The translations under genes and the position numbers were made by a program. The notes under the pieces were generated by a model. That model was not told the DNA's origin. It saw only the letters and a list, made by a program, of their open reading frames with translations, and did not search any database. A stretch of 58,253 nt of DNA from a virus (lineage: Duplodnaviria; Caudoviricetes), in IMG/VR virus record IMGVR_UViG_3300022723_000216, positions 1 through 58,253 of that record; one strand, 5' to 3'. Positions 5,501 to 58,253 of this stretch are shown piece after piece. Within the stretch, counting starts at the first letter, position 1. Every line of letters begins with the position of its first letter.

Positions 5501-5508
5501 GGCTCATG

Positions 5509-5751
5509 TCAAACAGCAAACTTGCGCTTGCGAATCGCCAGCGCCGCAATGTCCCTCTGGTAGTCAAACAACCCCGGCCATGGATCGTACTTGGCGGTGC
5601 GCGCCGTGCGCTTGCCGATGCCGATGCGGCTGGCGTATTCATCAGGGAACTCGGCCACGCGTCCGCGAATGCGATAGGTCGGCAGTTGCTTGACCTTGAG
5701 AAACCGCTGATAGTCCTGCGTGCTTGCAGGATCACAGACTGCGACCGCCAT
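5509..5751 (-). pseudogene. N-terminal stub of an SF2/SNF2-like phage helicase
   Basis: Ends LFDYQRDIAALAIRKRKFAV* (Q-motif-like) just before where GxGKT would be expected. Confidence 0.55.
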
Positions 5752-5857
5752 GCCTGCACCCCCATCCCGTTTGGCACGCCCTTGCCCTCATCCATGACGC
5801 CACTCCCGTGCCGAGCGTCGAGTTCACCCAGTGGCTCTATGTGCTGGTCGCCTGGCA

Positions 5858-7339
5858 TCATGCGTCGAAGACCTCCGCCCGCAGCGGGCCACTCGCGCCG
5901 GCCGACTTGTCGCTCTCGGCGGTGACGGCCAGGATCCCCACGCGCTTGCAGTGCTCGGCGATGCGCTTGCGGCCCTGCCAGTCCAGGCCTTCCCAGAAAG
6001 CCTGGGGCAGCGCGAGCATGCCGCCGGTGCCGACGTGGCTGGCGAAGATCGTGACAGCGATTTCGCTCCGCTCGCCGTCGGAGAGGTCCCAGAACGATTC
6101 GTTGCCGCGTTCGCTCTTGACCATCAACCGGCCGCGTTCGGCGAACAGGCTGCCGCCCAGCTTGGCCACGAGGCTACTGAGTACCTCGTCGGTGCCGGCC
6201 GCTTCCTCGCGCAACACCTCGGCGTCCGAGCGGCATTGGCGCTCCTGCGCCAGCCAGTCCTCGGCCTTCTCCCGGTTGGCAAGCGCATCGCGGATCTTCG
6301 CGCCGTGCAGCTCGGCCTCTCGGGTGGCCTGGACCGCAGCCCGGGCGTCTGCGAGCTCTTGGTCGGACACCGGTTCCACGTTCTCGGCCGCGGCCACCAC
6401 CTCGCGAAACCGGGCCAGCGACTGTTCGTGCGAGCGGGCGGTCGTCAGCACCTTCTCCGCCGAGGCGATGGCGCTCTCGGTCATGGCTAGACCTGAGCGG
6501 GCCTCCGCCAGCTCCCGCTCAATCTGAGCGATGCCGGCCATCTGTTCGTTGGCCTGGCCCCGCAGCGTGTCGAGAGCCTGTTGCGCCTGCCCGACTGTGG
6601 ACAGCGGACCGGCGTCGTTCTCGGCCGCCTCGAGCGCGCGGCGGGCATCCTGGGCTTCGCCGATCTTGCGGCGGGCGTTCTCGGCCCGTTCGGTCAGCCC
6701 GGCCAGGTTGGACACGGCCCGGTCGCGGGCGCTGGCCAATGCCGTGGCGTTGTGCTCGCCGCCCGTGTCGATGCCCTCACACGCCGCCAGGTGGCCCTGG
6801 GCTTTGCCCTGGGCTACGTCGGCCCGCCCTTCGGCGTCACGGGCCTGGCGCTGTAAGGCGCGTTCCACGGCGGCCGCCAGGGCCACGATATCGCCCGCCC
6901 CGGTGGTGATGCCCAGTGCGGCGAACGCCTGCTCGCCGCCGACCAGGTCCCAGAACAGCCTCTCGTCGCCCGAGCCGGCCAATTGGACAGCCGTCTTGAT
7001 GGCGTGGGCATCCTTGGCCGCCCGGTCCTTGTAGGGCGGGTTGATCAGGTCGGCCAGCGTGTAGCGGCCGGTGAGCACTTCGAAATCGAGCTCGCCGGTG
7101 CGGCGGGAACTCTTGCCCACCCGCAGCAGTACGTCGTTGACGCGTACCTCGGCCCGTTCGGCGCCGTCGGCCACCGGCGGCTTGCCGCGGCCGGTGGTGG
7201 CCGCTTCGATGGCGTCGAGCAGGATCGACTTGCCGGTACCCATGGGACCGTGCAGCACGACCACGCCGGCGTCCGGCGCTTCGAACTTAAACTGGCTGAT
7301 CGGCCCCACGTCGCGGGCCTCGATCGTCTTGGTGGTCAC
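5858..7339 (-). CDS. SMC/SbcC-like ABC ATPase with coiled coil
   Basis: GPMGTGKS Walker A, long helical centre, LSDGER signature-like motif. Confidence 0.8.
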   Translation of the reverse strand: MTTKTIEARDVGPISQFKFEAPDAGVVVLHGPMGTGKSILLDAIEAATTGRGKPPVADGAERAEVRVNDVLLRVGKSSRRTGELDFEVLTGRYTLADLINPPYKDRAAKDAHAIKTAVQLAGSGDERLFWDLVGGEQAFAALGITTGAGDIVALAAAVERALQRQARDAEGRADVAQGKAQGHLAACEGIDTGGEHNATALASARDRAVSNLAGLTERAENARRKIGEAQDARRALEAAENDAGPLSTVGQAQQALDTLRGQANEQMAGIAQIERELAEARSGLAMTESAIASAEKVLTTARSHEQSLARFREVVAAAENVEPVSDQELADARAAVQATREAELHGAKIRDALANREKAEDWLAQERQCRSDAEVLREEAAGTDEVLSSLVAKLGGSLFAERGRLMVKSERGNESFWDLSDGERSEIAVTIFASHVGTGGMLALPQAFWEGLDWQGRKRIAEHCKRVGILAVTAESDKSAGASGPLRAEVFDA

Positions 7340-9834: not shown

Positions 9835-10310
9835 GTCAGCTTCTCCAAATCGTCGAGGCTCGTGATCGGCATGCCCTGCGGCGGCCCAGGGTTCGTCACG
9901 GGGTAGATGAAGCGATAGAGGTCGCCACCGTCGGTGTGGTGCGTGGTCGTGCAGCGGAACTTGAGCTTCCGCAGAAAGATCTGGGCGACCACGTTGTTCT
10001 CGGGGACGTCGGCAAACACGCAGTAGCGCTGCGCCAGCCGCGCCACGTGGATCATCGGCCCGACCAGTTGGGTAGCGATGCGTTGCATCCGATACTCGGG
10101 CGCGACGCCAATGTCAGCCAGGCAGAGCGCCGCGCCGTTGTCGCGGAACTGCGCGTAGGCCACCAGCTCGGAACCAACCGGATACACCACGGTCAAATGG
10201 CCCTTGAGCCGCACCGGCGTGTCGGCACCGCGGCAGGTCATCCGCAGCCGGCAGACCTGGTTGACGTCGTACGGTTGCATCCAGCGCTGCGGGTGTGGCA
10301 GGTCAATCAT
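9831..10310 (-). CDS. GNAT (RimI-like) acetyltransferase
   Basis: IGVAPEYRMQRIATQL motif A; VPENNVVAQIFLRKLKF motif B. Confidence 0.8.
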   Translation of the reverse strand: MIDLPHPQRWMQPYDVNQVCRLRMTCRGADTPVRLKGHLTVVYPVGSELVAYAQFRDNGAALCLADIGVAPEYRMQRIATQLVGPMIHVARLAQRYCVFADVPENNVVAQIFLRKLKFRCTTTHHTDGGDLYRFIYPVTNPGPPQGMPITSLDDLEKLT

Positions 10311-12251: not shown

Positions 12252-12416
12252 CGCCTGGACTCCTTTCGTGCCAGATCCCGGCGGCCCGACCCGTTCAATT
12301 ACGCTGGGTCCAGATCGAGCCGCCGGGGTCCGCTACAACAAAGACCGGCCGCCGCACCGAGCCGAGTTAGGGCAGGCGGTAGCGGCCGGGCCCGGCAACT
12401 TTGGGGAGCCAGGCAG

Positions 12417-12491
12417 TAGCGCCGTCAGGATTCGAACCTGAGACCTCGTGGTTATGAGCCACGCGAGCTGACCAGACTGCTCTACGGCGCA
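12417..12491 (-). tRNA. tRNA-Met(CAT), initiator-like
   Basis: Cloverleaf: acceptor GCGCCG/CGGCGC, D arm GAGC/GCTC, anticodon CGTGG-CTCATAA-CCACG, T arm TCAGG-TTCGAAT-CCTGA; no encoded CCA. Confidence 0.93.
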
Positions 12492-28125: not shown

Positions 28126-29535
28126 TTACTTGCCGCCGATCGCCTCGAGCTTCTCCTCGATCTGCCGGCGCTTCTTGGCGGTATCACCGCCGGTAGCCAC
28201 CAGGTAATTCTTGTAGAGCTCGGGGTGCGTGCTCGCGATCCGCGCAATCGCGGACTGCCGACGCTTGAGCGCCGTCACGCCGTCACGCTGCGGGCCGACG
28301 GCCTTAGACACCAGCGCGTTGAAGTCCTCGATCGGATCGCCGCTCTGCAGATCGCCAGCGTCGGTGCCGCCCAGCGCGCCGCCAAGCGGGTCGTGCCCCA
28401 GGCTGCCGCTGTTGATGCGCTTCTCGCCCTGCGCCTTTTCGAGCTCTTCCTTCTGCTTGGCCTTGAGCTCATCGAGCTCCTTGGCGTGCGCCTCTTCCTT
28501 GGCCTTGAGCTGCGCGTCGACGTGCTTGGCGTAGTCGACGCTGGCCTGCTCGAGCGTGGCCTCGTTCTCGATCTGCTTCTCGCGCCAGTCAGCCGTCGAG
28601 TTGGGGAAGGCCTCTTTCAGTTGCTTCAAGGTGGCTGCGTCCATCTTTTGTCTCCCGAATAATGGAGTGGTCTTGTTCTTGCGAGTGGCAGCCACAAGCT
28701 GCTCGTACGTTTGCTCCAGCGTCTGGACGCCGTGTAGCAGTCCATCGTCGACGGCATCCGACGCCATGATCACGCGGCCGTCGGCCAGGTCGCGGATGTC
28801 GGCCAGCGGCAGCCCGGTGCCGCGCGAGATCTGTTCCAAATAGGCGTCGTTGATCGTGTTCACCAGGCGTTGAGCCTCGGCCAACTGCGCCTCGGTGATC
28901 TTCGTGCCGGGCTCGCCCATGCCCTTGAACTCGCCGGCCTTGATCACGTGCACCTGGATGCCCAGGGCCTCGGCCTCGCCGGAGTAGTCCACCAGCACTG
29001 AATAGGTGCCCATCGCCCCGTACATCGCCGTGGCGTTGTTGGCGAAACGCCGGGTGGTCTGGCTCATCACCGCCACGCCGGCCGACGCCGTCATGTCGTC
29101 GACGAACCCGTAGATCGGCTTGGCCTCAGCGAAGCGAGCCACCTCTTCGGCAAACTCCTCGTTGCCCTTCTGCGTGCCGCCCGGCGTGTCCATCACCAGC
29201 ATCGCACCGGCGACGTCGGCCGATTTGCGTGCCTGCCGCAACTGCTGCCGCGCTTGTACTGTGCTGGCGCCGCCGCCCAGCGACGACGCGTATTTCATGG
29301 TCGGGCCGATGATCGAGATCACTGCGATGCCGTCGGGCGTGAGCGGGTAGTCCCGATCGCTCTGCGCCTGCTTCGCGTCCGTGGGCCCCTTGCCGTTGAG
29401 ATGCGCCGGCAGGTTGAGCCCCTGGTACTGGTCAACGATGCGCCGGAAGGGCTCGTCGTAGACGCACCACAGGCCGAAGTAGTCGGCCACCTGGGGCGGC
29501 AGATCGAAGGCCGGCTTGAGGATGAAGTCGTTCAT
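28126..29535 (-). CDS. S49 prohead protease with C-terminal scaffold
   Basis: IAVISIIG, MDTPGG, MTASAG, AGEFKGMG; acidic helical tail. Confidence 0.9.
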   Translation of the reverse strand: MNDFILKPAFDLPPQVADYFGLWCVYDEPFRRIVDQYQGLNLPAHLNGKGPTDAKQAQSDRDYPLTPDGIAVISIIGPTMKYASSLGGGASTVQARQQLRQARKSADVAGAMLVMDTPGGTQKGNEEFAEEVARFAEAKPIYGFVDDMTASAGVAVMSQTTRRFANNATAMYGAMGTYSVLVDYSGEAEALGIQVHVIKAGEFKGMGEPGTKITEAQLAEAQRLVNTINDAYLEQISRGTGLPLADIRDLADGRVIMASDAVDDGLLHGVQTLEQTYEQLVAATRKNKTTPLFGRQKMDAATLKQLKEAFPNSTADWREKQIENEATLEQASVDYAKHVDAQLKAKEEAHAKELDELKAKQKEELEKAQGEKRINSGSLGHDPLGGALGGTDAGDLQSGDPIEDFNALVSKAVGPQRDGVTALKRRQSAIARIASTHPELYKNYLVATGGDTAKKRRQIEEKLEAIGGK

Positions 29536-31298
29536 CGGGCGGGCCTCCGGTCATCGCTGGGTTGGTCTGCCGGCTTGGCGTCGTCTTCGTCCCCTTCCAT
29601 CGTGGCCGTGGCCACCGCCTCGCCGCCGTCGCTGGTGTTGGCGCTAATCGCCAGCTTCGCGCCGGTGGCCTCGTTGCCGTAGCGGATCTCCCGCCACAGC
29701 ATGTTCACGTCAGCCATGGTGAAGACCTCGGGGAACTCCCCGACGATCTTGACCGCCTCGACGACTGCTGCGCGGATGAACTTGCCGCGATCGCGGATGA
29801 CCTCCGGTACGAAGTCGTCGAGGTCGATGCCGCGGGCGGCCAGGATGCTCCGCATGCTCTTGAGGTTGCGACGCTCGGCCAGGTCCTCGGCCGCCGCGTC
29901 TTCGAGCGGCTTGACGTACGGCCAGCCCTTGGGCCGGAACCGGAAGTTGAACGGGTTGATGCCGCGCTGCGTGGCTGCGTACAGCGCCGGGTCAAAGAAC
30001 GGCGAGCCGGGCGTGACGCGCTGCCGCGTCTTCCACTGGTACGTCGGTACGTACAGGCCCTGGATCAGATCGGCGATCAGTTGCTCCAGCCGCATCTTGA
30101 CCTGGTCAAACGTCATGCGGCCGCCGTGGAAGTTAACGAGCGACCCGTCGAGCAGCAGGAACGACAGCGGCAGATCGAGGTTGACCGCCAGCATCGTCAG
30201 CATTAGCGCCGCGTGCTTGAAAAAGCCCTCGGTGGGCATGGTGGCGTTCCAGCCCTTAAGCGAATAACCCTCGGGCGCCTTGAGCACCTGGGCCGGCTCG
30301 CCGACCTGCTCGACCGTGATCTGCTGCAACCCCAGGCCGACGTCGTACTGCGTATAGCGATCGCCGCCTTGCGGCAGCTTGCCCGAGCCGCCGGTGGGCA
30401 TGCCATTGGGGGCGAAGTTCTCGGAGTTCTCCATCAGGTAGGCGATCAACGCCCGCCGTAGCGCGCTTTTGATGTGCGCGTAATTCAGATCGTCAAAGCC
30501 GCGCATGGCCACCCGCGGCGGCGAGAGCCGGCTGATGCCCCGGCGCTGCTTGAAGCGGTGGGTGAACCCCATCCAGAACACGATCTTGTTGCCTTCCAGG
30601 TCGTAGGCCGGGAAGCGCCGCGATTGCCCGCGGCTGAGACTCTGGTGCGGCGTCAGACTGCGGGGCGTGAGCCAGTAGGCCACGGTGCGGCCGCGCTGCA
30701 CTTCCACGCCGTGCACAAAGCCGTCGGTCGCCAGACCGGTTGCGCGGCGGCCCCCGGGGTTGCGTAGATGGTGCGACTCCCAGGTCTCCAGGCTGCCGTC
30801 GCGGAGTGGGATGTGAACGATGTCGCCGTCCTGGCACTGGCTAAAGAACGACTGCCGCGCGATCTGCTGGAACGTGCGGCGCTGTTCGTAGTCGCACAGC
30901 CGCGGGTCGTCGCACCAGGCGTGCCAGAAGGCTTTCTGGTCGGCGTCGACCGCTTCGTCGCCGCTGTCGACGTCGAGCGTGAAGTCGCCGATCCGCATGT
31001 TGGCGATCAGGCGGTTGATGGCCTGCTCGACAAGGGGATGGTCGCGCACCGCGGAGCGCCCCCGCTCGACCATCAGGAAATAGTTGCGCTCGGTGCGGTA
31101 GTGGTAGTCGGCGTCGGTGCCGAGTGGATCGATCCCGCGCGGGATGGGATTCATCCGGTCGCTGGTGCCGGCCGCGTAGGTCTGGGCCGCCTCGCGATCG
31201 CGGCGCTGGGTGAAGTAGGCTTCATCCAACTCGCGGATGCGCTGGGCCAGGTTCCGCTCGCCCGCGTGGCCGTTATGGGCAGCTGCGATCATCATCAC
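29532..31298 (-). CDS. Portal protein, lambda family
   Basis: DGDIVH, HGVE...G..VAYW, QRRGISRLSP, VNFHGGR, WPYVKP; exact start uncertain. Confidence 0.9.
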   Translation of the reverse strand: MMMIAAAHNGHAGERNLAQRIRELDEAYFTQRRDREAAQTYAAGTSDRMNPIPRGIDPLGTDADYHYRTERNYFLMVERGRSAVRDHPLVEQAINRLIANMRIGDFTLDVDSGDEAVDADQKAFWHAWCDDPRLCDYEQRRTFQQIARQSFFSQCQDGDIVHIPLRDGSLETWESHHLRNPGGRRATGLATDGFVHGVEVQRGRTVAYWLTPRSLTPHQSLSRGQSRRFPAYDLEGNKIVFWMGFTHRFKQRRGISRLSPPRVAMRGFDDLNYAHIKSALRRALIAYLMENSENFAPNGMPTGGSGKLPQGGDRYTQYDVGLGLQQITVEQVGEPAQVLKAPEGYSLKGWNATMPTEGFFKHAALMLTMLAVNLDLPLSFLLLDGSLVNFHGGRMTFDQVKMRLEQLIADLIQGLYVPTYQWKTRQRVTPGSPFFDPALYAATQRGINPFNFRFRPKGWPYVKPLEDAAAEDLAERRNLKSMRSILAARGIDLDDFVPEVIRDRGKFIRAAVVEAVKIVGEFPEVFTMADVNMLWREIRYGNEATGAKLAISANTSDGGEAVATATMEGDEDDAKPADQPSDDRRPAR

Positions 31299-31608
31299 CG
31301 CGATAGCCGTACGGTCCGAAGTTCGAAAAGTCGCTGTGCAGCACGCTCGGGTTGGCCAGGCGCTGGGCGTCGGTCTGCGGGGCGTTGGCCGTGTACCAGG
31401 CGAGGCACATCTGGAGCTGGCGCTCGATGGCCTCGACGTTCACGTCCACGCTCAGCTCGCCGCGCCGGAAGGCCTCCTGCACTTTGTCGAGCTTGGCCCG
31501 CAGCGCCATGATGCGCCGCCGAGCCAGTGCCACGTCCGAATCGACGTCGTAGCCCAGCGTCGCGGTAAGTTCCGCCTCGATGCCGGCGATGGTCGTCAAG
31601 TCGGCCAT
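31273..31608 (-). CDS. Head completion (gpW-position) protein
   Basis: 111 aa immediately upstream of the portal. Confidence 0.6.
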   Translation of the reverse strand: MADLTTIAGIEAELTATLGYDVDSDVALARRRIMALRAKLDKVQEAFRRGELSVDVNVEAIERQLQMCLAWYTANAPQTDAQRLANPSVLHSDFSNFGPYGYRGDDDRSCP

Positions 31609-31701
31609 GTGCCCACTCTGGCAGTTGGCGCAGCTCGGCTGCAATGCTCAGAGCATCGGGCGCGTCGGGTTTGGGTGGATTCGGGCGCGTCGGGCGCGTT
31701 G

Positions 31702-31740
31702 TGGTATACTGGCCGCCGCCACAACCACCAGCTGGGGGAG
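31702..31740 (+). promoter_or_regulatory. Extended -10 promoter and RBS for the Cas12f-like gene
   Basis: TGGTATACT (TGn-TATACT) at 31702-31710; GGGGAG at 31735-31740; ATG at 31748. Confidence 0.6.
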
Positions 31741-31747
31741 CCCTGCC

Positions 31748-33040
31748 ATGAGCGCATTGGCTGAACACACCATGTGTGTTGCATGCGGCGTTGCCAGAGA
31801 AACCAAGCCGACACAGCGTGGACTCTTGCGATTGCCACGTGGCTGGAAGCGCATCGACGACGAAGTGCTCTGTTCTAGCTGCACACAGGATCGCTACGTC
31901 CTGCGGGCCGTGACCCTGCCCATCGCCAAGCCGCTTGATTCAACTTGGGCAGAGTTCCGCGAGATCATTCGCGGCCAGTGGTCTCTCGTGTCTCAGTGCA
32001 TGACCTGGATGGTCCGCGAGTTATACGCCCGCGACGCCGCACGCGCCGGCACGCACGACAAGCTTCCCAAAATGGAGCGGGTGTATCTCTATCCGGAAGC
32101 TCGCGAGAGATTTCCTGGCCTCGTGCCGGCGACGGTCTCGGCGCTTGAGCAGCTTGCTCAGTCGAAATACCGGAAGCAGCGTTACGGCGTGCTGTGGACA
32201 CAGGAGGAACAACTGCAAACGCTGCGCTACCCGCAACCGCTGATCGTGCCAGCGAAGAACTGGTCGATCGAGATATCACCGACGAATGCCCGGCGGGATA
32301 TCGTGCTGACGGTGCGGATCGCGGGCGCGCCGCGACAACTACGGCTGCGTAGTGGCGGCAACTTCCGCCGGCAGCGACTCGATATCGAAAAGATCATCGC
32401 CGGGGACGCCGTCAAGGGTGAGTTGGCTATCTATCGCAAGCGGGCCGCCGGCACGGATCGGGCGGGCGCCAGCGGTCAGAAGTCGAGCGCGCTGGGTAAG
32501 GATCGTGGGGACGGCGGGCAGCAGATTCGCTACGACACGATGGTCAAGCTGGTGGGGCGCTTCCCGCGCAAGCAACACGCCGAGCGCACTGGAACGCTGT
32601 ACGTACGGACGGCTGGCGAAAGCCTGCTCGTGGCGTTGAACGCCAAGGATGAGAAGCTGTGGGTGCTCAACAGTGACCACGTGCGGCGGTGGTGCGCGGA
32701 GCACATGGCGCGACTCAATCGCTGGAGCGATGACGCCAAAGCCGAACTGCGGCCCACCGTGCCGTTTGCCGATCGGCGGCAGGCGGCAGCGGTAAAGTTC
32801 CGCAACCGCATTCACTCGGCTTGCCTGGAGGCGGCAGCGCAACTGGTGGCCTATGCTGTGCGTCGGAAATTCGCCGAAGTGCGGTACAATGACGCGGACA
32901 AGAGCTACGTGGGCCGCTTCGACTGGAGCGGTCTCAAGGCGGCGATCGAACATAAGTGCAATGCAGACAACCTGCGATTCATCGACGCGAGCGGCGCGGT
33001 GAAGTCGCCATCCCGGGAGCCGCTCGAAAGTGAAGGGTGA
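31748..33040 (+). CDS. Cas12f/TnpB-like RNA-guided protein, predicted nuclease-dead and C-terminally truncated
   Basis: 430 aa; N-terminal CxxC...CxxC; Cas12f-like blocks LQTLRYPQPL, IEKIIAGDAVKGELAIY, RNRIHSACLEAAAQLVAYA, WSGLKAAIEHKC; RuvC-I reads TLYVRT and RuvC-II reads VRYND; no RuvC-III; adjacent CRISPR array. Confidence 0.75.
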   Translation: MSALAEHTMCVACGVARETKPTQRGLLRLPRGWKRIDDEVLCSSCTQDRYVLRAVTLPIAKPLDSTWAEFREIIRGQWSLVSQCMTWMVRELYARDAARAGTHDKLPKMERVYLYPEARERFPGLVPATVSALEQLAQSKYRKQRYGVLWTQEEQLQTLRYPQPLIVPAKNWSIEISPTNARRDIVLTVRIAGAPRQLRLRSGGNFRRQRLDIEKIIAGDAVKGELAIYRKRAAGTDRAGASGQKSSALGKDRGDGGQQIRYDTMVKLVGRFPRKQHAERTGTLYVRTAGESLLVALNAKDEKLWVLNSDHVRRWCAEHMARLNRWSDDAKAELRPTVPFADRRQAAAVKFRNRIHSACLEAAAQLVAYAVRRKFAEVRYNDADKSYVGRFDWSGLKAAIEHKCNADNLRFIDASGAVKSPSREPLESEG

Positions 33041-33156
33041 TCTTATGTTAAGGCGTCCGCAACGCCTAGCGCGGGATAGCTCCGGTACGTTTACCGGCCG
33101 GGGTGCTCGCGGAACGCGGCAAAAACTGTGCGGGGAGAACACGTTACGTGGCCGCC
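32988..33156 (+). promoter_or_regulatory. CRISPR leader / possible scaffold RNA region
   Basis: IR CGAGCGGC (32988) / GCCGCTCG (33019); hairpins AGGCGT/ACGCCT (33051-33067) and CCGGTA/TACCGG (33082-33097). Confidence 0.5.
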
Positions 33157-33408
33157 CCCGCAGTGGATGAACGACGTTGAATCTGCTGCGGGAATAGATA
33201 GGGAATCGCTCCCACGGGACTCCTGCCCCCGCAGTGGATGAACGACGTTGAATCTGCTGCGGGCGGCGAGTCGAAGCTTTTCACCCTCACGCAGTTGGGC
33301 CCCGCAGTGGATGAACGACGTTGAATCTGCTGCGGGAACGATGTCGTCTCCCGAGACCCAGACCGCGCCGCACCCGCAGTGGATGAACGACGTTGAATCT
33401 GCTGCGGG
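33157..33408 (+). CRISPR. CRISPR array: 4 identical 36-bp repeats, 3 spacers (35, 37, 36 bp), plus a probable 4th spacer and degenerate 5th repeat to ~33480
   Basis: CCCGCAGTGGATGAACGACGTTGAATCTGCTGCGGG at 33157, 33228, 33301 and 33373; unique spacers. Confidence 0.97.
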
Positions 33409-33752
33409 TCGAATCCCGCGCTGCTACTTTGGAAATGCTTGATCGCCGCAGGTCATGGGCCGACGCGTATTTCATCGCCGAGGCGATCGAAGCGAACGTG
33501 ACACCCAGCCAGTTCCCGCGGTACGTGGCTCATAGAACACGATGCCCGTCGACGCCGCCTACCCCCTGGACAACTTCAAGGTGATCGCGGGCAAGCGCTC
33601 TTCGCACAGCGCGACGCCGTGGATTGGTGGTACGCCGCATTGGGCGCCGCAGCTTCGTGCTGGGGCGCGACTGGATCGCCTACCTCGAGAAGGCGCCGAC
33701 CGTGTAGCGATAAAAACGCGGACAACCGTTCGATTGTCCGCGGCTCGATGTG

Positions 33753-34139
33753 CTATGCCCGCACGCGCTTCGCGCCATGTTGTGCATGTGCCTCGGCGAC
33801 CGCTTCCAGCAGATACCGCACGCCGTCGGCCGGGCTGACCACGCGCCGGCCGTTATCCAGCGTCGCCTGCCGCCGATCGAGGCCGTGGACCAGGCGCCGC
33901 AGCGCGTTGGTCTGTTCGCGCGTCAGCTTGATGTCGAGGTGGGCGCACCAGTCGATTAACGTGGCGTCTGGATCAAACGGTGCCTCGATGAGCACGGTCG
34001 CCAACGCTGGAGCTGCCAGTTCGGGCGCTGGCGTGGGTGGCGCGACGGTGCGCCGGCCAAGCGGAATGATCGCTGGATCCTTGGGCGTCGCCGGCAATGT
34101 GGTCTTGGCGGCTTGCTGCTTCTTGCTTACCTTCGGCAT
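33753..34139 (-). CDS. Hypothetical protein downstream of terminase
   Basis: 128 aa MPKVSKKQ...; GGAGG RBS. Confidence 0.7.
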   Translation of the reverse strand: MPKVSKKQQAAKTTLPATPKDPAIIPLGRRTVAPPTPAPELAAPALATVLIEAPFDPDATLIDWCAHLDIKLTREQTNALRRLVHGLDRRQATLDNGRRVVSPADGVRYLLEAVAEAHAQHGAKRVRA

Positions 34140-34161
34140 GGAGTTCCTCCCGTTTCGTGAG

Positions 34162-36402
34162 TTACCAGTTGGGGCGATAGACGCTCGCGTCTGTGCCGCC
34201 TGACGGCGGCTGTGACGCCGCCTGTTGAGCCGGCGGGGTCTGCACCGCCGTGGACCCAAATACGTTGATGCCGCGTACGCTGCGGGCACACACGGCCTGA
34301 TAGGTGGCGTCGAAGTAGTGGTTCGGCTTCGGCGACTTCCACCAGCCGGTGCGGGCCCCCTTGAAGCCGGGCACAAACCGCGTCTCCCAGGTCTCGGCCA
34401 GGATGTGCTTGGCGTACGATAGGTGCGCGTTGCGATTCACGCGGCCGTCGATGCGCGGCGGGTTAAAGACGCGCAGCGAGCCCGGCTCACCCGTTTCGGC
34501 CAGGAACCCTTCGTGGACCTTGAGCTTCCAATGGTCGGTGTTCATGTCCACGGTCGGCACGCCGGCCGGGAACGACACGTGCCAGTTGTCGCCCGCCACG
34601 ATGCGCCGGCCACCGGGCTGGCGATAGGGCGATTGCCCCTTGGACGGGCAGCAGCGGTCGAATCCGATCTCGCCGCAGAACAGCGCCACCGGCTGGGTGT
34701 TCCAACTCTGTTCCTTCCAGCCGGTGTCGATCAACGCCAGGTCGATGGTCCACTGGTCGTTGCCCGACTCGCTGGCCATGGGCGACGCTTCCTGATTCTG
34801 CCACCAGGCGTGCAGGCCTTCGAGGATCAACAGCTCGCAGTCAGCTGCGGGGCGGTTGGCCGTCTGGAATTCAAAGAAGTCGTAGTCGATGACGATTCCG
34901 ACGGCGTTCTCGTTCCAGGCCACGAGCGCGTAGTGCAGGCCGAGCTTCTGCACGTCGCCGCCCGCCGTGATGCACACCGTGCCTTCGGGCACCACGCGGC
35001 GCTCGATGCCGCTTAAGCAGTGGTTTTGGATGTGGTAGGCGGTGAGGATCAGCCGTGCCGCGCCCTCTTCCTCGGGCGGGTTGTTATCCATCTCGCACGC
35101 GACCGAGTCGGGGTCGGTGCGGGCCACCTCGTTGTAGTAGTGCTGCAGCGCCGAGACTTCGACCTGGGTGCCATCGCCCAGCACGGACGGGTCGTAGCGG
35201 TGCTCGTTGGCGACCACGGCGCCGGCGTCCATCAGCGCGCGGCGCTCGAGGTAGAACGCGTGTGACCGCCGGCAGTGCTTATCGGTGCTGATCTGGGCCT
35301 GAAACTCACGAAACTCCTTCTCGCGCAGTGAAACGTATTCCTCCCACAGGTCTTTGCGGTCAGGCGGCTTGATCAGGTAGCGGAACCGCCGCCCCTTCCA
35401 AGTCGGCTTCTGCTCGGGATCCGTGTATTTGAACGACACGCAAGTGCGGTTCTGGATGGTGGTCAGCATGACGCGGGCCACCGGCTTCTGCTGGCTGCCC
35501 AGGCCGCCGATCGCTCGATCGATGCGCTCCATGAGCTTGATGCCGCCCTCGCCGAGCTCGCCGGGACGCTTCCCCGGGCGGATGGTCTCTTCGGTGTCGG
35601 GGTCGTCGATGCCGACCAGCTGCGGCCGCCGGCCCTTGCGCTTGAGGCCGCGGATGGCCGAGTCGAGGCCGCGCGTGGCGATGATCGCTCGAGCCGCCGG
35701 CGCCCCCGGCACATTGGGCAACACGATCTCCGATCCGCACCAGGTGAACTTGCTCGAGACGCGGCGGTACGGCTGGCCGTTGTCGTGCCGTTCGCCGCTC
35801 ACCAGTTGGTACTGGGCGCGGTTGGGCGTGTTCTCAAGTGCCCGGACCGGCACGCAGACTTCCGGGTAGTCGTCCAACAGCAGCGAGTTCTCTTCGATCG
35901 CTGTTTTGATGGAGTCGAGCGAGTCGTTGGCCAGCGTGGCGGTGGCCGCGCACAGAACAGAAAACGAGAGCGCGCCTTGCAACGTGTATTTCAACAGCAG
36001 GCGCTCGAACAGGCTGGTCTTGCCTTCGCCGCGGCTGGCCGCGATCGCCTGGTCGCCGCCGTACACGATGGCGTCTCGGATGGCGCTGATCATCTCTTGC
36101 TGCTGCACGGTGAAGGCGTACCAGAACGGATCGTGCAGGCCGCACTCGATGCTGAAGTAGTGCATAAGCCAATCGATGTCGTTGGCCTCGAGCCGCTCGC
36201 GCCGCTCGCGGTTGGCGCAAGCCGGCACGACAACCTCTTTGGCCGCCGCCCGCTGCTCACGCTTGCGTTCGACGTCGCGTTCGCGCTCCGACGAGCGGCC
36301 GGTGATCTTGTCCAGCATGGCCAGTTGCTTGCGCAACGTGGCCGCCGCTTCGGCTGCCCGGGCCTGCATCTCTCGGGTGTTGGCGGCACTTTGTTCGCTC
36401 AC
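34162..36402 (-). CDS. terL: Terminase large subunit (gpA-like)
   Basis: AASRGEGKT Walker A, GIDDPD Walker B, GGDVQK nuclease, IDTGW, NHYFDA; GTGA overlap. Confidence 0.92.
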   Translation of the reverse strand: MSEQSAANTREMQARAAEAAATLRKQLAMLDKITGRSSERERDVERKREQRAAAKEVVVPACANRERRERLEANDIDWLMHYFSIECGLHDPFWYAFTVQQQEMISAIRDAIVYGGDQAIAASRGEGKTSLFERLLLKYTLQGALSFSVLCAATATLANDSLDSIKTAIEENSLLLDDYPEVCVPVRALENTPNRAQYQLVSGERHDNGQPYRRVSSKFTWCGSEIVLPNVPGAPAARAIIATRGLDSAIRGLKRKGRRPQLVGIDDPDTEETIRPGKRPGELGEGGIKLMERIDRAIGGLGSQQKPVARVMLTTIQNRTCVSFKYTDPEQKPTWKGRRFRYLIKPPDRKDLWEEYVSLREKEFREFQAQISTDKHCRRSHAFYLERRALMDAGAVVANEHRYDPSVLGDGTQVEVSALQHYYNEVARTDPDSVACEMDNNPPEEEGAARLILTAYHIQNHCLSGIERRVVPEGTVCITAGGDVQKLGLHYALVAWNENAVGIVIDYDFFEFQTANRPAADCELLILEGLHAWWQNQEASPMASESGNDQWTIDLALIDTGWKEQSWNTQPVALFCGEIGFDRCCPSKGQSPYRQPGGRRIVAGDNWHVSFPAGVPTVDMNTDHWKLKVHEGFLAETGEPGSLRVFNPPRIDGRVNRNAHLSYAKHILAETWETRFVPGFKGARTGWWKSPKPNHYFDATYQAVCARSVRGINVFGSTAVQTPPAQQAASQPPSGGTDASVYRPNW

Positions 36403-36668
36403 GTCTTGCCGCCCGGGCTCTTCCACAGGCCCTGTTCGGCCATGGCGTCGACCATCTCCTTGGCGGTCATCGGCTTCTTGGCCTCGGCCAGTAGGCCCGC
36501 CCGCCCGGCGCGCCGTGGGGCCACGTGGGCGGCCAGGCCAACGGCCGACATCCCGGTCTGATCACCGCGGTAAGCGCCCCGCATGCGTCGCGGGGCGTTT
36601 CTCGTTGACGTGCCGTACCTGGCCAACGCGCGCAACAGGCCGCGGGGCCGGCGGCGTCTGGCGTTCAC
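36399..36668 (-). pseudogene. ORF ending in a truncated HARE-HTH (HB1/ASXL) winged helix
   Basis: LAEAKKPMTAKEMVDAMAEQGLWKSPGGKT* stops where the recognition helix normally follows. Confidence 0.55.
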
Positions 36669-37996
36669 GTGGCAACCTCCTGGTGGACTAGCTCAGCCTT
36701 GCCGCCGGTGAACTTCTCCCACCGCTCGACGATCACGTCGCAGTACAGCGGGTCAAGCTCCATCACGAACGATCGCCGGCTGGTCTGCTCGGCGCCCATC
36801 AGCGTGCTGCCGCTGCCGCCGAACAGGTCGAGCACGTTCTCGCCCGGCTGCGACGAATAGCGCATGGCCCGGGCAGCGAGCTCCACCGGCTTCTCGGTCA
36901 GGTGGACCATCGATTGCGGGTTGACCTTCTTGACGCTCCACACGTCGACCGCGTTGTTCGGGCCGTAGAACTGGTGTGCCGATCCGAGGCGCCAGCCGTA
37001 GAAGCACCACTCGTGGTTGCCCAAGAAGTCCTTCCGCGTCAACACCGGGTGCTCTTTGACCCAGATGATGGCCTGCGAAAAGTAGAGCTCGCACGCCTTC
37101 AGGGCGGGCGGGTACTTGGCGCAGTTGGCATATCCGCCCCAGACGTAAAACCCACGTCCGGGCTCGAGCACCCGGGCGATATTGCCGAACCAGGCGTCCA
37201 GCAGTTCGTCAAACGCCTCGTCGCTGACAAAGTCGTTCTCGAGGGGCCGGTCCTTGGCCCGCATTTTTTTTCCGGTCGGCTTCGATTTGCCGGGATGACG
37301 CGCGAGATCGAGCGATTGGTGGTGCTTTGGCCCTTGGAACGAGCTCAAGCCTGCGGCGATCGCGTTGTTGCTCCGCGGCTCAACCTTCACGTTGTACGGC
37401 GGGTCGGTGTTGACCAGGTGGATCACTGCCCCGTCCAGCAGCCGGTCCAGGTGCTCTGGGTTGGCCGAGTCGCCGCACAGCAGGCGGTGGTCGCCGAGGA
37501 TCCACAGGTCGCCCGGCTTGGTGGTGGCCTCGCCGGGCAGGGCCGGAGCCTGGTCTTCGACGATCTCCCCGTTGTTGGCGGCCCGTCCGGCTATGCCGGC
37601 GGACTCGGCTAGCGACGCGAGCATGCCCTGCAGCGCTTCGCTATCCGTCTCGATCTGCCGCAGCAGCGTGTCGAGCTTCTCCGGGTCGGTGCCGGCCATC
37701 GCCGCGAGCGGGTCGACCGTCGCCAGCAGCTTGGCTGCCTCGGCCTCGTCGACGTCCAACACGAGCACCGGCCACTCCGTGTCGGGGGCGACGTCGGCCC
37801 GCAGGTGGCCGTCGATCAGATGTAACCCCTCCGGTGTCTCCCGTACCAGGAGCGCGTCGGCGATGCCGACCTCGGCCAGGATCCCGCGCAAGGCGTTTTG
37901 CTGGTCCTTCGAATGCGTCCGCCAGTTGCCCGGGTTGGGCAAAATCTCGCTCGCCTTCACGCGGCGAAGCTCTTTGATCCGATCTCGAATTGCCAT
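36665..37996 (-). CDS. ParB-N domain / N4-N6 DNA methyltransferase fusion
   Basis: PNPGNWRTH...LIDGHLR; TDPPY; HLTEKPV; VLDLFGGSGST. Confidence 0.93.
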   Translation of the reverse strand: MAIRDRIKELRRVKASEILPNPGNWRTHSKDQQNALRGILAEVGIADALLVRETPEGLHLIDGHLRADVAPDTEWPVLVLDVDEAEAAKLLATVDPLAAMAGTDPEKLDTLLRQIETDSEALQGMLASLAESAGIAGRAANNGEIVEDQAPALPGEATTKPGDLWILGDHRLLCGDSANPEHLDRLLDGAVIHLVNTDPPYNVKVEPRSNNAIAAGLSSFQGPKHHQSLDLARHPGKSKPTGKKMRAKDRPLENDFVSDEAFDELLDAWFGNIARVLEPGRGFYVWGGYANCAKYPPALKACELYFSQAIIWVKEHPVLTRKDFLGNHEWCFYGWRLGSAHQFYGPNNAVDVWSVKKVNPQSMVHLTEKPVELAARAMRYSSQPGENVLDLFGGSGSTLMGAEQTSRRSFVMELDPLYCDVIVERWEKFTGGKAELVHQEVAT

Positions 37997-51646: not shown

Positions 51647-53049
51647 GTTGGTGTAACGTTTCTTCTGTAAACAGCATTCAAGGAATTCGCGTGTGGGGCT
51701 TGGCGGAGCGGAGGCGAGCGCAAGCGAGCCGAAGCGGAGCCAAGCCCCACACGCGGTGGCGAGCTTGAAAGGGGTGGGCCAAAGTGGTTTCCTTTTGATT
51801 TTGTTCTCTACGCAAAACGAAAGGAGTCTCCCCGATGGCCCACCACGATCAATCTAACGCACGCGACGAAGTTGTCCACCTCCTGGCCGAGCACGGATTC
51901 GACGGCATGGCTCAGGCACTCGAAACCCTCTTCAACGAAGCCATGAAGCTCGAACGCTCCGCCGTCCTGGGAGCCGCACCGTATGAGCGCACCGAAGCGC
52001 GACGCGGCTATGCCAACGGTTTCAAGCCCAAGACCGTCACCAGCCGCCTGGGCAAGCTGCACTTGCAGGTGCCGCAGACGCGCGGCGTCGAGTTCTACCC
52101 GTCCGCACTCGAACGGGGCGAACGCAGCGAACGGGCGTTGAAGCTCGCCCTGGCCGAGATGTACGTGCAAGGCGTCTCCACACGCAAAGTGGCCGAGATC
52201 ACCCGCGAACTGTGCGGTTGCGATGTCTCCAGCACGCAAGTCAGCCGGGCGGCCGAGCTGCTCGATGCCGAACTGGAAGTGTGGCGTAATCGCCCGCTGG
52301 GCGCGACGCCTTACCTGATGCTCGATGCACGTTACGAAAAAGTCCGGCACGGCGGCAGCGTCATCGATTGCGCCGTGCTGATTGCCATCGGCGTCACGCC
52401 CGACGGGCGGCGCTCGATCCTGGGCGTCAGCGTCTCCCTCTCCGAGGCCGAGGTGCACTGGCGGTCGTTCCTCGCGTCGCTTATCGACCGCGGCCTGCAC
52501 GGCGTGCGGCTGATCACCAGCGACGATCATGCCGGGCTGGGCCAGGCGCGTCGGGCCTGCTTCCCCAGCGTGCCCTGGCAGCGCTGCCAGTTCCACCTGG
52601 TGCAGAACGCCTTGCACTACGTGCCGAAGTTGCCGATGCGGCGCGAAGTGGCCCGCGATCTGCGCGGCGTGTGGGATGCCCCCGATCGCAGCGAAGCCGA
52701 GCGGCAACTGGCCGTGCTCGTCAAGAAATACCAGGCCATCGCGCCGAAGCTTGCCACCTGGCTGGAAGCCAACGTGCCCGAAGGGCTGACCGTGTTCGCC
52801 TTGCCGGCCGAGCATCGTCGCCGATTGCGGACCAGCAATCCGCTCGAACGCCTCAACGAAGAAATCAAACGCCGCACACGCGTCGCCACGTTGTTCCCCA
52901 ACGAAGCCTCGCTGTTGCGGCTCGTCACCGCCATCCTCCAAGAAACCAGCGAAGACTGGGAAACCGGAAAGGTCTATCTCACCCTGGAAACCAACTAACC
53001 CACCCCAACCAAGCTCACACGGCATTTACAGAAAAATGGTTGCTCAATC
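51647..53049 (+). mobile_element. IS256-family insertion sequence
   Basis: Imperfect 25-bp terminal IRs ending TTCTGTAAA; 8-bp TSD CTTGGTGC at 51639-51646 and 53050-53057. Confidence 0.93.
51835..52998 (+). CDS. IS256-family (mutator) transposase
   Basis: YVQGVSTRKV, LDARYEKVR, SDDHAGL, WQRCQFH, RTSNPLERLNEEIKRR. Confidence 0.97.
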   Translation: MAHHDQSNARDEVVHLLAEHGFDGMAQALETLFNEAMKLERSAVLGAAPYERTEARRGYANGFKPKTVTSRLGKLHLQVPQTRGVEFYPSALERGERSERALKLALAEMYVQGVSTRKVAEITRELCGCDVSSTQVSRAAELLDAELEVWRNRPLGATPYLMLDARYEKVRHGGSVIDCAVLIAIGVTPDGRRSILGVSVSLSEAEVHWRSFLASLIDRGLHGVRLITSDDHAGLGQARRACFPSVPWQRCQFHLVQNALHYVPKLPMRREVARDLRGVWDAPDRSEAERQLAVLVKKYQAIAPKLATWLEANVPEGLTVFALPAEHRRRLRTSNPLERLNEEIKRRTRVATLFPNEASLLRLVTAILQETSEDWETGKVYLTLETN

Positions 53050-53558: not shown

Positions 53559-53768
53559 ATGACCATATACGCACGAATCGGAGACGCGCAGTTAGTCAAG
53601 AGCGGGGATGGATGCGTCGGACTCTGGAACCCAACTACCAGAGGATGGATCGAGAGATGGGGGCTCGGCACAAACCATGCGGGGTTTGTCCGCGCGATGC
53701 TGGAGCTACCAGAACACCAATTGACGGACGTGGGTCGAGAGTGGCTGCACAAGCGAGTTGCGCAATGA
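53559..53768 (+). CDS. IS passenger, hypothetical protein
   Basis: GGAGG RBS; ATGA overlap with the transposase. Confidence 0.6.
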   Translation: MTIYARIGDAQLVKSGDGCVGLWNPTTRGWIERWGLGTNHAGFVRAMLELPEHQLTDVGREWLHKRVAQ

Positions 53769-54712
53769 CCGACACCCCGCAAACCCTCCTCGAAGCCGTC
53801 CAGTATTTCAGCGACTCCAAGATTTGCTTTTCCGCGATGCTCGTGGTCAAGTGGCCGGACGGTAAACCAGTCTGCCCCAAGTGTGGCCACGACGAGGCCT
53901 ACATAATCCGCACGCGGTCGATCCTCGATTGCAAAAAGTGCCGCAAGACCTACAGCGTCAAGGTAGGAGCGATCTTCGAGGATTCGCCATTGCCTCTGCA
54001 AAAGTGGTTCGTCGCCATCTGGTGCATCGCCAATGCGAAGAATGGCATCAGCAGTTGCGAACTTGGACGCGCTCTCGGCGTGACTCAAAAAACAGCCTGG
54101 TTCATGCTCCACCGGATTCGGCTGGCCATGCGCACAAAGTCGTTTCGTAAACTGGCCGGCGAAGTCGAATCCGACGAGACCTTTATCGGCGGTCGCGCCG
54201 CCAACATGCACAAGGGCGAGCGGGAGAAACGGATTCGCGGTCGTGGCGCAGTCGGCAAGGCCATCATCCAGGGATTGCTGCAGCGAGGCGGCGAAGCACG
54301 CATGTCTGTCGTACCGAACACGGACACTGAGACATTGCAGCCCAACGTGCGGCGCAACGTCGAGTGGGGATCGCAGGTCTACACCGACGCGCACGGCGGC
54401 TACGTCGGCCTGGACCTGTCGTTTTTTCACAAGACAGTCGACCACATTAGCCGCTACGTCGAGGGGCGGGTCCACACCAACGGCCTCGAAAACTTCTGGT
54501 CGCTGCTCAAGCGATCCTTGCAAGGCACCTACGTTGCCGTCGCTCCGTTCCACCTGCAACGCTACGTGGACGAGCAAGCGTTTCGATTCAACGAGAGACT
54601 GGGCAGCGATGGATCGCGATTCCGCCGCGTTCTGTCGGCCGTCGTCGGCAAGCGGTTGACCTACCGCGAGTTGACAGCCCAAGGCGACGCGGGATTCATG
54701 GGGATCAAATGA
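53765..54712 (+). CDS. IS1595-family transposase
   Basis: Zn ribbon CPKC...CKKC, GISS, VESDETFIGG, YTD, HTNGLENFWSLLKR. Confidence 0.96.
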   Translation: MTDTPQTLLEAVQYFSDSKICFSAMLVVKWPDGKPVCPKCGHDEAYIIRTRSILDCKKCRKTYSVKVGAIFEDSPLPLQKWFVAIWCIANAKNGISSCELGRALGVTQKTAWFMLHRIRLAMRTKSFRKLAGEVESDETFIGGRAANMHKGEREKRIRGRGAVGKAIIQGLLQRGGEARMSVVPNTDTETLQPNVRRNVEWGSQVYTDAHGGYVGLDLSFFHKTVDHISRYVEGRVHTNGLENFWSLLKRSLQGTYVAVAPFHLQRYVDEQAFRFNERLGSDGSRFRRVLSAVVGKRLTYRELTAQGDAGFMGIK

Positions 54713-57703: not shown

Positions 57704-58253
57704 GTACTCAACTCCGTCGCCTTCCGCACACACTCCAGCGGTGGCCACGCATCAATCCATTCCAAAACGATCTTGCTAAACTGGCTCGTCGCCGGCGTGT
57801 CGCCTTTCTTGATCGCCAGGAAGAACCGCTCCGCTGGACGGTCGACATCCGGCTTGAGCGTTTCGATCTCCTGGTAGTTGCAATGCCGCACGTTGGCAAT
57901 CGTGCCCACCAGGCAGGCACACTCCCCTTCGTATTGCGAGCCGTCAATGCGGCCCTCGATCACCGCTTGTCGCAGACCCTCGACTTCCACGGGAGCACTC
58001 GACAGCACCGCCCAGAAGTCATCACGGATCGGCGTCAGGTTGGCGCCTCGCAGGTAGGCGTCTTGCAGGTAGGCGCCTCGCAGGTAGGCGCCTTGCAGGT
58101 TGGCGCCTCGCAGGTTGGCGTCTTGCAGGTCGGCGCCTCGCAGGTCGGCGCCTCGCAGGTCGGCGCCTTGCAGGTAGGCGCCTTGCAGGTTGGCGCCTCG
58201 CAGGTTGGCGTCTTGCAGGTAGGCGACTTGCAGGTCGGCGCCTCGCAGGTAGG
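57700..58253 (-). CDS. Pentapeptide-repeat protein, 3' part
   Basis: 15-bp repeats at 58036-58253 encoding A(D/N/Y)L(R/Q)(G/D); C-terminal domain [18 protein letters not shown]. Confidence 0.9.

Follow-up and report, generated by a model that had tools for sequence, protein, structure and literature searches.

A RuvC-defective protein of predicted Cas12f fold, a tracr-like RNA and a CRISPR array in a soil-type phage: a probable RNA-guided DNA binder

Introduction

What use has a phage for a CRISPR array whose companion gene encodes a protein that resembles the nuclease Cas12f and appears to have lost its active site? The question is raised by a cassette on the + strand of IMG/VR record IMGVR_UViG_3300022723_000216, the 58,253-bp genome of a soil-type tailed phage (Duplodnaviria; Caudoviricetes) that CheckV rates 100% complete. 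This whole stretch, positions 1 to 58,253, is called the window below. An earlier note, made from the letters of the sequence without database searches, had described a self-contained unit of one 430-aa gene followed by an array of 36-nt repeats, and had read the protein as a truncated, nuclease-dead relative of Cas12f. The unit stands as described, with an open reading frame (ORF) at 31748-33040 and repeats spanning 33157-33408. Our analysis suggests that the accessory cassette comprises the 430-aa protein of Cas12f architecture, a tracr-like (trans-activating CRISPR) RNA of about 108 nt and an array of four repeats, and that together these probably constitute an RNA-guided DNA binder that does not cut.

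Relatives and predicted fold of the protein

The gene for the protein, P0001, runs on the + strand from an ATG at 31748 to a stop codon at 33038-33040, and the letters GGGGGAG directly 5' of the ATG fit the ribosome-binding site that had been read there. Searched singly and with E-values of up to 10 allowed, the protein matches no family of Pfam, NCBIfam or PHROGs, and its best match in PDB by phmmer has an E-value of 0.5. Relatives are numerous. A word-indexed protein search returned 151 matches at E <=1e-3 among 8000 scored candidates, and an exhaustive search of 50%-identity representatives returned 895 matches at E <=1e-3, 715 at <=1e-10 and 348 at <=1e-30. The 120 relatives listed from the word-indexed search are 288-461 aa long, and none bears a Pfam domain or any name other than 'hypothetical protein'.

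A profile built from the alignment of 61 members over 414 positions was more revealing than the single sequence. Eight of its 11 listed PDB matches are Cas12f-family chains, with E-values of 1.6e-6 to 5.4e-5, and between them these cover profile positions from about 46 to 402. The best is the Cas12f1 chain 9i8y (E 1.6e-6), where profile positions 61-401 align to chain residues 29-374; chains 8j3r, 8j1j, 8j12, 9nzq, 7wju and 8dzj follow at E 3.6e-6 to 1.6e-5, and 9n9c, a 365-aa 'nuclease-deactivated Cas12f', is found at E 5.4e-5 with positions 46-394 on chain residues 10-362. The remaining three listed matches have E-values of at least 0.24. None of the 11 is named TnpB, and five bear the generic names 'Transposase IS605 OrfB' or 'OrfB_Zn_ribbon'. 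A structural comparison, which the note had proposed as a check, points the same way: the ESM Atlas model of the exact sequence (pTM 0.59, pLDDT 0.72) aligns with TnpB/Cas12f clusters over 321-360 residues with TM scores of 0.64-0.70. Judged by profile and predicted structure, the protein is homologous to Cas12f over the WED, REC and RuvC regions. The block order that had been recognized by eye agrees with this, since in the profile alignment to Cas12f1 the segment WSGLKAAIEHKC lies on WPYYDLQTKIVNKA, RNRIHSAC..AAQLVAYA lies on the helix preceding RuvC-II, and the family motif F-P-W..L...I..K lies on W-P-Y..L...I..K of 9i8y.

Catalytic positions

In the same alignment the L-x-V-R-T strand of the family falls on M-G-V-D-l-G of 9i8y, with the Arg on the RuvC-I Asp. 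In the window this is TLYVRTAG (aa 283-290), the stretch that the note had placed here, lying on the GVDLG strand, and the residue at the Asp position is R287 (codon 32606-32608, + strand). The five commonest residues in column 287 are Arg (45), Lys (4), His (3), Val (2) and Gln (2), which account for 56 of the 61 rows and include no acidic residue. At RuvC-II, the family's Y-D-D-S-D aligns on I-E-N-L-E of 9i8y. The window has VRYNDA here (VRYNDAD, aa 378-384) on IQIENL, again as proposed, so that N381 and D382 (codons 32888-32893, + strand) lie at and beside the position of the Glu. Column 381 has Asp in 50 rows, Asn in 7, the window among them, and Glu in 1 (acidic in 51/61), and column 382 has Asp in 58/61. 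The protein ends about 45 aa past the RuvC-II position, and the Cas12f alignments stop at chain residues 374-376 of 432-500. Because the protein ends where the Cas12f zinc finger, the TNB domain, begins, both this domain and the RuvC-III segment must be counted as missing; the only CxxC pairs are N-terminal. Weak Pfam TNB matches (E >=0.1) occur in five of the 61 members, and there is no significant Pfam match. The Asp-Glu-Asp RuvC triad of Cas12f nucleases is therefore not kept in the window, which has R287, N381 and no RuvC-III. The early stop had been noticed for the one protein; the alignment extends the catalytic losses to the family, in which RuvC-I appears lost throughout and an acidic residue often survives at RuvC-II.

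The acidic residues that do survive favor a different account, in which the protein still cuts nucleic acid, whether through a rearranged site, as a nickase, or as an RNase that processes pre-crRNA, and the cassette is an interference system against competing phages. Residues D96, D310, D329, E333 and D382 are nearly invariant, position 291 is Asp or Glu in 53/61 members, and the available portion of PMC10691335 describes rearranged active sites in other branches of TnpB, so that such an arrangement stays conceivable here. With a basic or neutral residue at the RuvC-I position in 56 or more of the 61 rows and a RuvC-III segment missing in all members, we nevertheless consider continued cutting unlikely. 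Array lengths and self-matching spacers, both described below, bear on the same point.

The truncated end contrasts with additions elsewhere. The N-terminal CxxC...CxxC module that had been pointed out is a conserved putative zinc ribbon (aa 10-45; 31775-31882, + strand): C42 and C45 are invariant in the 61 homologues, C10 and C13 are at least 90% conserved, and a conserved motif, RLPxGWKR, lies between the cysteine pairs. Neither this ribbon nor a conserved C-terminal ASG...PLA tail has a counterpart in the aligned region of Cas12f. We considered whether the ribbon might be a relocated TNB domain and set the idea aside as unsupported, as an Atlas structure search with residues 1-62 matched only generic small zinc ribbons.

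A scaffold RNA between gene and array

Between the stop codon and the first repeat lie 116 nt that had been taken for a leader. This interpretation has to be replaced: the stretch holds a conserved, structured RNA, predicted to be tracr-like and about 108 nt long (33048-33155, + strand; nhmmer profile match E 1.8e-18), which covaries with the repeat at two pseudoknot contacts. Nearly all homologous loci show sequence conservation between gene and array. Our collection comprises 90 loci, a few near-duplicates among them. Where at least 250 nt of flank was available, 70 of 73 loci have the scaffold downstream of the protein match and on its strand, at a median distance of 48 nt (the misses are L055, L063 and L093), and repeats follow in all 66 loci where the unit is complete. 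The linkage of homologues to arrays, named in the note as a test on which its proposal could fail, is thus a regular feature of the family.

The predicted structure begins with stem 1 (33051-33067), whose loop CCGC occupies 33057-33060, and continues with stem 2 (33070-33074 with 33107-33111), a third stem with the motif ACGYUUGCCG in its loop, helix A (33116-33119 with 33152-33155) and a small hairpin (33140-33150), all on the + strand. Two further pairings would reach into the array. The stem-1 loop is complementary to GCGG at the 3' end of the first repeat (33188-33191), and an anti-repeat UGCGGGG (33129-33135) is complementary to the repeat's 5' end at 33156-33162, the C at 33156, just 5' of the first repeat, joining the pairing.

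Covariation was counted over 65 distinct aligned units, for a structure of 29 pairs that we specified ourselves. Of 1866 cells, 90.6% are paired, compared with 70.4% in column shuffles (0/500 as high) and 36-43% when partners are slid by 1-3 columns. Changes on both sides are seen in 25 of the 29 pairs. The covariation score reaches 0.50, where shuffles give 0.14 and slid partners 0.06-0.09. Paired cells make up 98.1% in stem 1, 85.2% in stem 2, 95.9% in the main part of helix A and 73-88% in the small variable hairpin; the middle pair of helix A occurs as G-C 35 times, U-A 16 times and C-G 11 times. The contact between the stem-1 loop (CCGN) and the four bases before the last repeat G (N'CGG) is 93.5% paired, with double changes in three of four pairs. 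At its variable position the pair is C-G in 28 units, A-U in 18, G-C in 10 and U-A in 3, and rarer loop and repeat variants also match (CUGC/GCAG, CCAC/GUGG, CCUC/GAGG, CCUG/CAGG, CUGA/UCAG). The contact between the anti-repeat, which lies just 5' of a conserved GAUAU, and the first six repeat bases is 93.3% paired, with both sides changed in five of six pairs. When partners are permuted among loci, the observed 56/65 Watson-Crick matches of the loop-repeat contact compare with 17.9 on average and 29 at most, and the 54/65 of the anti-repeat contact with a mean of 8.2 (0/5000 as high in either case). A competing outer hairpin formed by the repeat's own two ends is weaker; it leaves one pair open in 37/65 units and pairs only 75.8% of cells.

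This geometry resembles that of other Cas12 systems, as far as sequence can tell, for according to 10.1101/2025.01.20.633832 it is typical of Cas12 tracrRNAs that a segment near their 5' end pairs with the repeat where it adjoins the guide. Rfam has no match to 31000-34500, even with E-values of up to 1 allowed. Before the scaffold profile replaced it, a covariance model built on just the repeat had found only its source arrays and a weak match in L019 (E 0.14).

The covarying contacts also bear on whether protein and array belong together at all. Phage mini-arrays that use a host Cas system are known (cited in 10.64898/2026.09.14.751636), and the array in the window might be one of these, with the protein employed otherwise. 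We regard this as highly improbable: 70 of 73 loci combine protein, scaffold RNA and repeat, although the phages among them have no other genes detectably in common, the scaffold covaries with the ends of the repeat, and the protein is a homologue of RNA-guided Cas12f.

The array and the single-guide loci

The array consists of four identical 36-nt repeats (33157-33192, 33228-33263, 33301-33336 and 33373-33408, + strand) separated by spacers of 35, 37 and 36 nt (33193-33227, 33264-33300 and 33337-33372). The repeat folds better on the + strand (-19.5 kcal/mol, z -5.35, 0/200 shuffles as good) than on the - strand (-13.1), and repeats of 11 loci share a common stem with compensatory changes in five of seven pairs. 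Homologues at other loci have arrays in a similar position, so that chance does not account for this one. What may be a fourth guide, read in the sequence, follows the last repeat at 33409-33444 (+ strand). The end of that repeat and the next 16 nt form a hairpin, GCGGG-TCGAATC-CCCGC (33394-33425), that resembles the T-arm of a tRNA; a link to tRNA-type attachment sites is possible.

The 3' end of the scaffold is complete in 66 loci. Arrays of 2-9 repeats are present in 34 of these, six of the arrays being cut off where the contig stops, and the other 32 have a single repeat followed by a single guide. The longest arrays, of up to 9-10 repeats, resemble immune arrays, a second point in favor of a cassette that cuts; the lack of a Cas1 gene in the window speaks the other way. 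When 50 proteins are placed on a quick maximum-likelihood tree, the array or single-guide label needs 11 changes, of which starred branches force at least five. The deepest branches are array-bearing, on a tree with a midpoint root only and two rows with long branches. First guides are conserved among diverged single-guide loci (e.g. L017/L021/L049, L046/L048/L034 and L023/L092), which argues for fixed, conserved targets.

Carriers named by GTDB belong to Acidobacteriota (Bryobacteraceae, Solibacteraceae, Paludibaculum), Planctomycetota and two 'Saccharibacteria' bins, and 12 loci come from IMG/VR, three of these records having terminal repeats and being rated complete. Certain chromosomal single-guide loci adjoin transporter genes. 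Genes of the AcrB-family RND pump end just 5' of the homologue in L017 (1860-4991) and L049 (11-2953); genes for TonB-type outer-membrane barrels lie 5' of it in L046 (65-2839) and L086 (63-2774), and 3' of it in L023 (4040-6850) and L034 (5146-7110). The neighbor in L019 is a Ser/Thr kinase.

These chromosomal neighborhoods give some weight to a further alternative, in which the complex binds DNA as a recruiter of RNA polymerase, a sigma factor, a recombinase or another enzyme, in the manner of dCas12f-sigmaE or Cas12k, with the zinc ribbon or the C-terminal tail as its docking surface. Both parts are family-specific or conserved as described, and single-guide members beside AcrB and TonB-type genes recall the susCD link of dCas12f-sigmaE, as given in the available portion of PMC13472631. 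A conserved protein partner, on the other hand, was not seen. The cassette in the window is flanked by proteins of 123 aa and 128 aa without a Pfam family, then by portal and terminase genes. In nine other carrier phage contigs nothing resembles the window portal at E 1e-5, and a weak terminase match, to terL, is found in only one (G004) and a weak protease match in one (G005). There is no sigma factor among the 10 neighbor proteins of chromosomal loci scanned, and a family-wide sigma search was not run. Recruitment strikes us as improbable, and action as a repressor or roadblock is preferred.

Several loci depart from the common plan. Whole units of scaffold, repeat and guide are present in 2-4 copies in L009, L011 (4194, 4722, 8636, 8971), L020 (3062, 3495, 4263) and L034, and look like arrays of complete guide RNAs, not CRISPR arrays. 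L030 has a second scaffold copy on the opposite strand. Spacers 2 and 4 of L006 (G004) are nearly identical, differing in their first three bases, which suggests duplication within the array. In L024 (G014:C1:1716580-1723938), on a complete 6.9-Mb Bryobacterales chromosome, the homologue is in pieces over 7 kb beside a recognizable scaffold RNA, and is probably a disrupted gene. By eye, L017 has a tRNA-like sequence about 200 nt past the guide.

Targets of the guides

The three spacers of the window and the trailing guide were compared with four sets of sequences. No match at >=62% identity was found in the window itself; 10 phage contigs gave only chance matches of 12-16 nt; 50,697 phage records gave no match; and 401 Acidobacteriota genomes gave 22 weak, chance-level matches, of which about eight fall on the hairpin stretch 33394-33425. 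The best group among these, one 20-mer in three apparently orthologous genes, was rejected as chance, for it includes three repeat bases and the match does not extend.

Relatives were more informative. When 181 spacers and trailing guides from all loci were compared with all loci, one real target emerged, a self-match in L003: spacer 5 is identical (37/37) to L003 5246-5282 on the - strand, 41 nt into an ORF for a DPPY-motif DNA methyltransferase (5205-5945). Spacer 1 of L016 likewise matches its own contig at 37/37 positions, 7.6 kb from the array and within a proline-rich ORF. Self-matching spacers were thus seen in two of 12 carrier contigs examined, one set of 10 and one of two; in four of the 10 the repeats were poorly delimited and the spacers are imprecise. 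The 5' flanks of the two protospacers, on the strand identical to the guide, end in CAAGAC and TACGTGC, and we claim no protospacer-adjacent motif (PAM) from two cases. The methyltransferase gene matched in L003 differs from the ParB-methyltransferase fusion of the window described below.

A perfect match to the carrier's own genome is tolerable for a system that only binds, and not for one that cuts DNA, unless the PAM is lacking. The two self-matches therefore provide the best functional hint that DNA is not cleaved and are a further argument against an interference system; from them and from the sequence of the catalytic positions we infer a loss of cleavage. They also point to self-regulation as one use of the cassette. 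The use put forward in the note, against host genes or competing elements, is a conjecture for this phage, whose guides gave no target in the sets searched; the only two targets seen in relatives are in the DNA of the carrier itself.

Two other apparent targets were rejected. A tail match of L015 to another contig of the same metagenome-assembled genome (MAG) reflects a terminator-like flank that the two have in common and does not mark a protospacer: the hairpin and T run after the array (L015 2756-2800) recur at G417:C564:2078-2122 with 96% identity, and the MAG holds a second homologue, L014. The fixed guide GATCGCAATCAGG of the L017 group has 28 sites in one genome and 18 in another with at most one mismatch, where a reversed control has 2 and 1; because their flanks are unrelated, these sites probably reflect oligonucleotide bias, and no target was assigned.

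Proposed mode of action

We propose that the protein would retain a WED-REC-RuvC architecture in which the RuvC-I Asp has become Arg, the zinc finger and RuvC-III have been lost and an N-terminal zinc ribbon has been gained. The tracr stem-1 loop CCGC would pair with the last repeat bases GCGG, just 5' of the guide, in a pseudoknot of the kind used by Cas12 and TnpB guide RNAs, and UGCGGGG would pair with the first seven repeat bases CCCCGCA, leaving the center of the repeat as a hairpin. The first repeat, paired in cis, would give a natural single guide, and later repeats would be paired in trans. The complex would find DNA that matches the 5' part of the spacer, form an R-loop, stay bound without cutting and so act as a programmable repressor or roadblock. 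Assembly of the ribonucleoprotein, binding to DNA, absence of cleavage and repression as the outcome are all steps that we infer.

Several considerations weigh against this proposal, besides the nearly invariant acidic residues discussed above. The protein and the RNAs are predictions, known here from sequence alone. The fold is supported by a profile with modest E-values and an Atlas model of middling confidence. No target was found for the window's spacers or trailing guide in the sets searched, self-targeting was seen in only two relatives, and with respect to the called ORFs one of their protospacers is on the opposite strand from the other. The covariation counts take no account of relatedness among loci; here the many distinct compensated pair types, together with the slid controls, speak against an origin by chance or by shared descent alone.

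Comparison with known systems

The cassette is best filed among the nuclease-dead, type V or TnpB-derived RNA-guided DNA binders. We found no description of the present family in the literature searched, and the supplements of PMC10691335 and PMC13472631 may list the clade. The closest parallel in print is from Hoffmann et al. (Nature 2026, PMC13472631), whose available portion describes a sigmaE-associated dCas12f and a small cluster of CRISPR-linked dCas12f in Bacteroidota, the latter with a covarying RNA upstream, guides directed at RND efflux promoters and an example in a Chitinophagaceae MAG. As far as that portion goes, the Cas12f fold and a C-terminal truncation of part of RuvC are shared with the present family, for which binding without cutting is likewise proposed; the efflux promoters targeted there recall the two chromosomal members found here directly after AcrB genes, and the CRISPR-linked cluster may overlap our family. 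There are also clear differences. The relation to dCas12f 9n9c is distant, and the match to it (E 5.4e-5) is no closer than that to active Cas12f1 (E 1.6e-6); members here have 400-430 aa and an N-terminal zinc ribbon, compared with 365 aa for dCas12f; and their carriers are phages and MAGs of Acidobacteriota and Planctomycetota, with full arrays in about half of the loci, whereas dCas12f is from Bacteroidota. The sigmaE-associated form has an rpoE partner with a C-terminal extension, and no sigmaE gene neighbors the cassette in the window. It is also described, in the same portion, as using a single chimeric guide and no tracrRNA, whereas in the window the scaffold is a separate RNA and an array follows it, yet 32 of 66 loci here have a scaffold with one repeat and one guide.

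Cas12f1 (9i8y, 8j12, 8j1j, 8j3r, 7wju, 8dzj, 9nzq) gives the best profile matches and is similarly small, and type V-F1 systems share the position of the tracrRNA between effector gene and array and repeats of 36-37 nt. Cas12f1 cuts DNA, with its D-E-D RuvC triad intact and a TNB zinc finger in place, while the protein described here has Arg at RuvC-I and neither TNB nor RuvC-III. TldR proteins, TnpB-like nuclease-dead repressors (10.1101/2023.11.30.569447; PMC13622181), are, in the portions of these papers available, small, dead, RNA-guided and in some cases prophage-encoded, and their fixed guides against transporter or flagellin genes resemble our 32 single-guide loci. TldR descends directly from TnpB, with a single omega-type RNA and no array, whereas about half of the loci here have arrays and the PDB matches are of Cas12f type. 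Cas12m (V-M) and Cas12k (V-K) are likewise type V proteins that bind DNA without double-strand cuts, and Cas12m silences transcription; both are much larger and keep the RuvC-like domain, neither is among the 11 listed PDB matches, and no Tn7 genes are present here. Two further systems, the phage-linked Cas12p 'hacker' with 500-700 aa and the Cas12m of a myxophage with 610 aa, are also larger, and their RuvC triads are reported as intact. Cas12r of Thermus phages also turned up in the literature; its abstract gives neither a size nor the state of the RuvC site.

If the proposal is correct, RNA-guided transcription control by dead Cas12f and TnpB derivatives would reach beyond a few Bacteroidota and enterobacterial cases to soil phages and their hosts, as a widespread accessory function. 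The retention of real CRISPR arrays after loss of the nuclease would amount to a natural, multiplexed 'CRISPRi' of about 400 aa and offer a compact scaffold for engineering. The architecture of the guide RNA is legible directly from covariation, and transitions from array to single guide on one tree bear on the origin of fixed-guide regulators from immune systems. The transporter neighbors of chromosomal single-guide loci parallel links reported for TldR and dCas12f. For the phage self-regulation to which the self-targeting spacers point, we found no earlier documentation in virus-encoded type V systems in searchable papers. A wider generalization, which we put forward tentatively and hold to be possible but short of probable, is that the 895 clusters at 50% identity form a large undescribed clade of CRISPR-programmed regulators. 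In phages these would run multi-guide programs that include silencing of the phage's own genes (e.g. the DNA methyltransferase) by means of a dead zinc-ribbon Cas12f and a double-pseudoknot tracrRNA, and they would have been domesticated repeatedly in Acidobacteriota and Planctomycetota as single-guide regulators beside efflux pumps and TonB-type transporters.

Setting of the cassette in the phage genome

The cassette stands between the portal and terminase operons, and its direction of transcription, read from the sequence, is opposite to that of the structural operons; nearly all long ORFs of the record with high GC content at third codon positions (GC3) are on the - strand. PHROGs matches on that strand identify the head maturation protease (28129-29535), the portal (29535-31298) and the large terminase (34165-36426), and further PHROGs matches in the record are a major head protein, a tape measure protein, a DnaB-like helicase and a RecE-like exonuclease. 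The 430-aa gene has a GC3 of 0.75, compared with 0.87-0.89 for the flanking genes. This low value, together with the carriers that lack a shared portal or terminase, suggests that the cassette moves between phages.

Upstream, the letters TGGTATACT of the extended -10 element proposed in the note are indeed present (31701-31709, + strand, 39 nt 5' of the ATG). A consensus scan of 31400-33900 found no full -35/-10 pair, and the element therefore has the status of a candidate only. Downstream, a terminator-like hairpin with a T run on the - strand (33717-33742) ends the convergent operon of the terminase and a small gene and bounds the cassette. The absence of adaptation genes and transposases around the unit, also remarked on in the note, was borne out where it was examined: the Cas1 family PF01867 is missing from the whole 58-kb record (the same search was positive in 7/14 control genomes; Cas2, Cas4 and Cas6 were not searched by family), and there is no transposase within about 18 kb of the cassette. 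Two transposase genes do occur farther away, one of the Mutator/IS256 family (PF00872, E 1e-108) at 51835-52995 and one of the IS1595 family (PF12762 with its zinc ribbon) at 53612-54709, both on the + strand of a phage whose genes are mostly on the - strand. The right 13 kb of the record, which also encode a thioredoxin-domain protein and a weak peptidase-MA match, may be host-derived or an insertion hot spot.

Other features of the window lie outside the cassette. Adjoining the terminase gene, 36668-37996 (- strand) encodes a ParB-like N-terminal region fused to a DNA methyltransferase (phrog_498, E 6e-94; ParB-like phrogs at residues 9-121). Two tRNA genes are also present, tRNA-Ser(tga) at 9930-10014 (+ strand) and tRNA-Met(cat) at 12416-12491 (- strand). 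At the end of the record, 58006-58245 holds a tandem array of about 10 overlapping copies with a 15-nt period, which may be a coding repeat or an assembly end.

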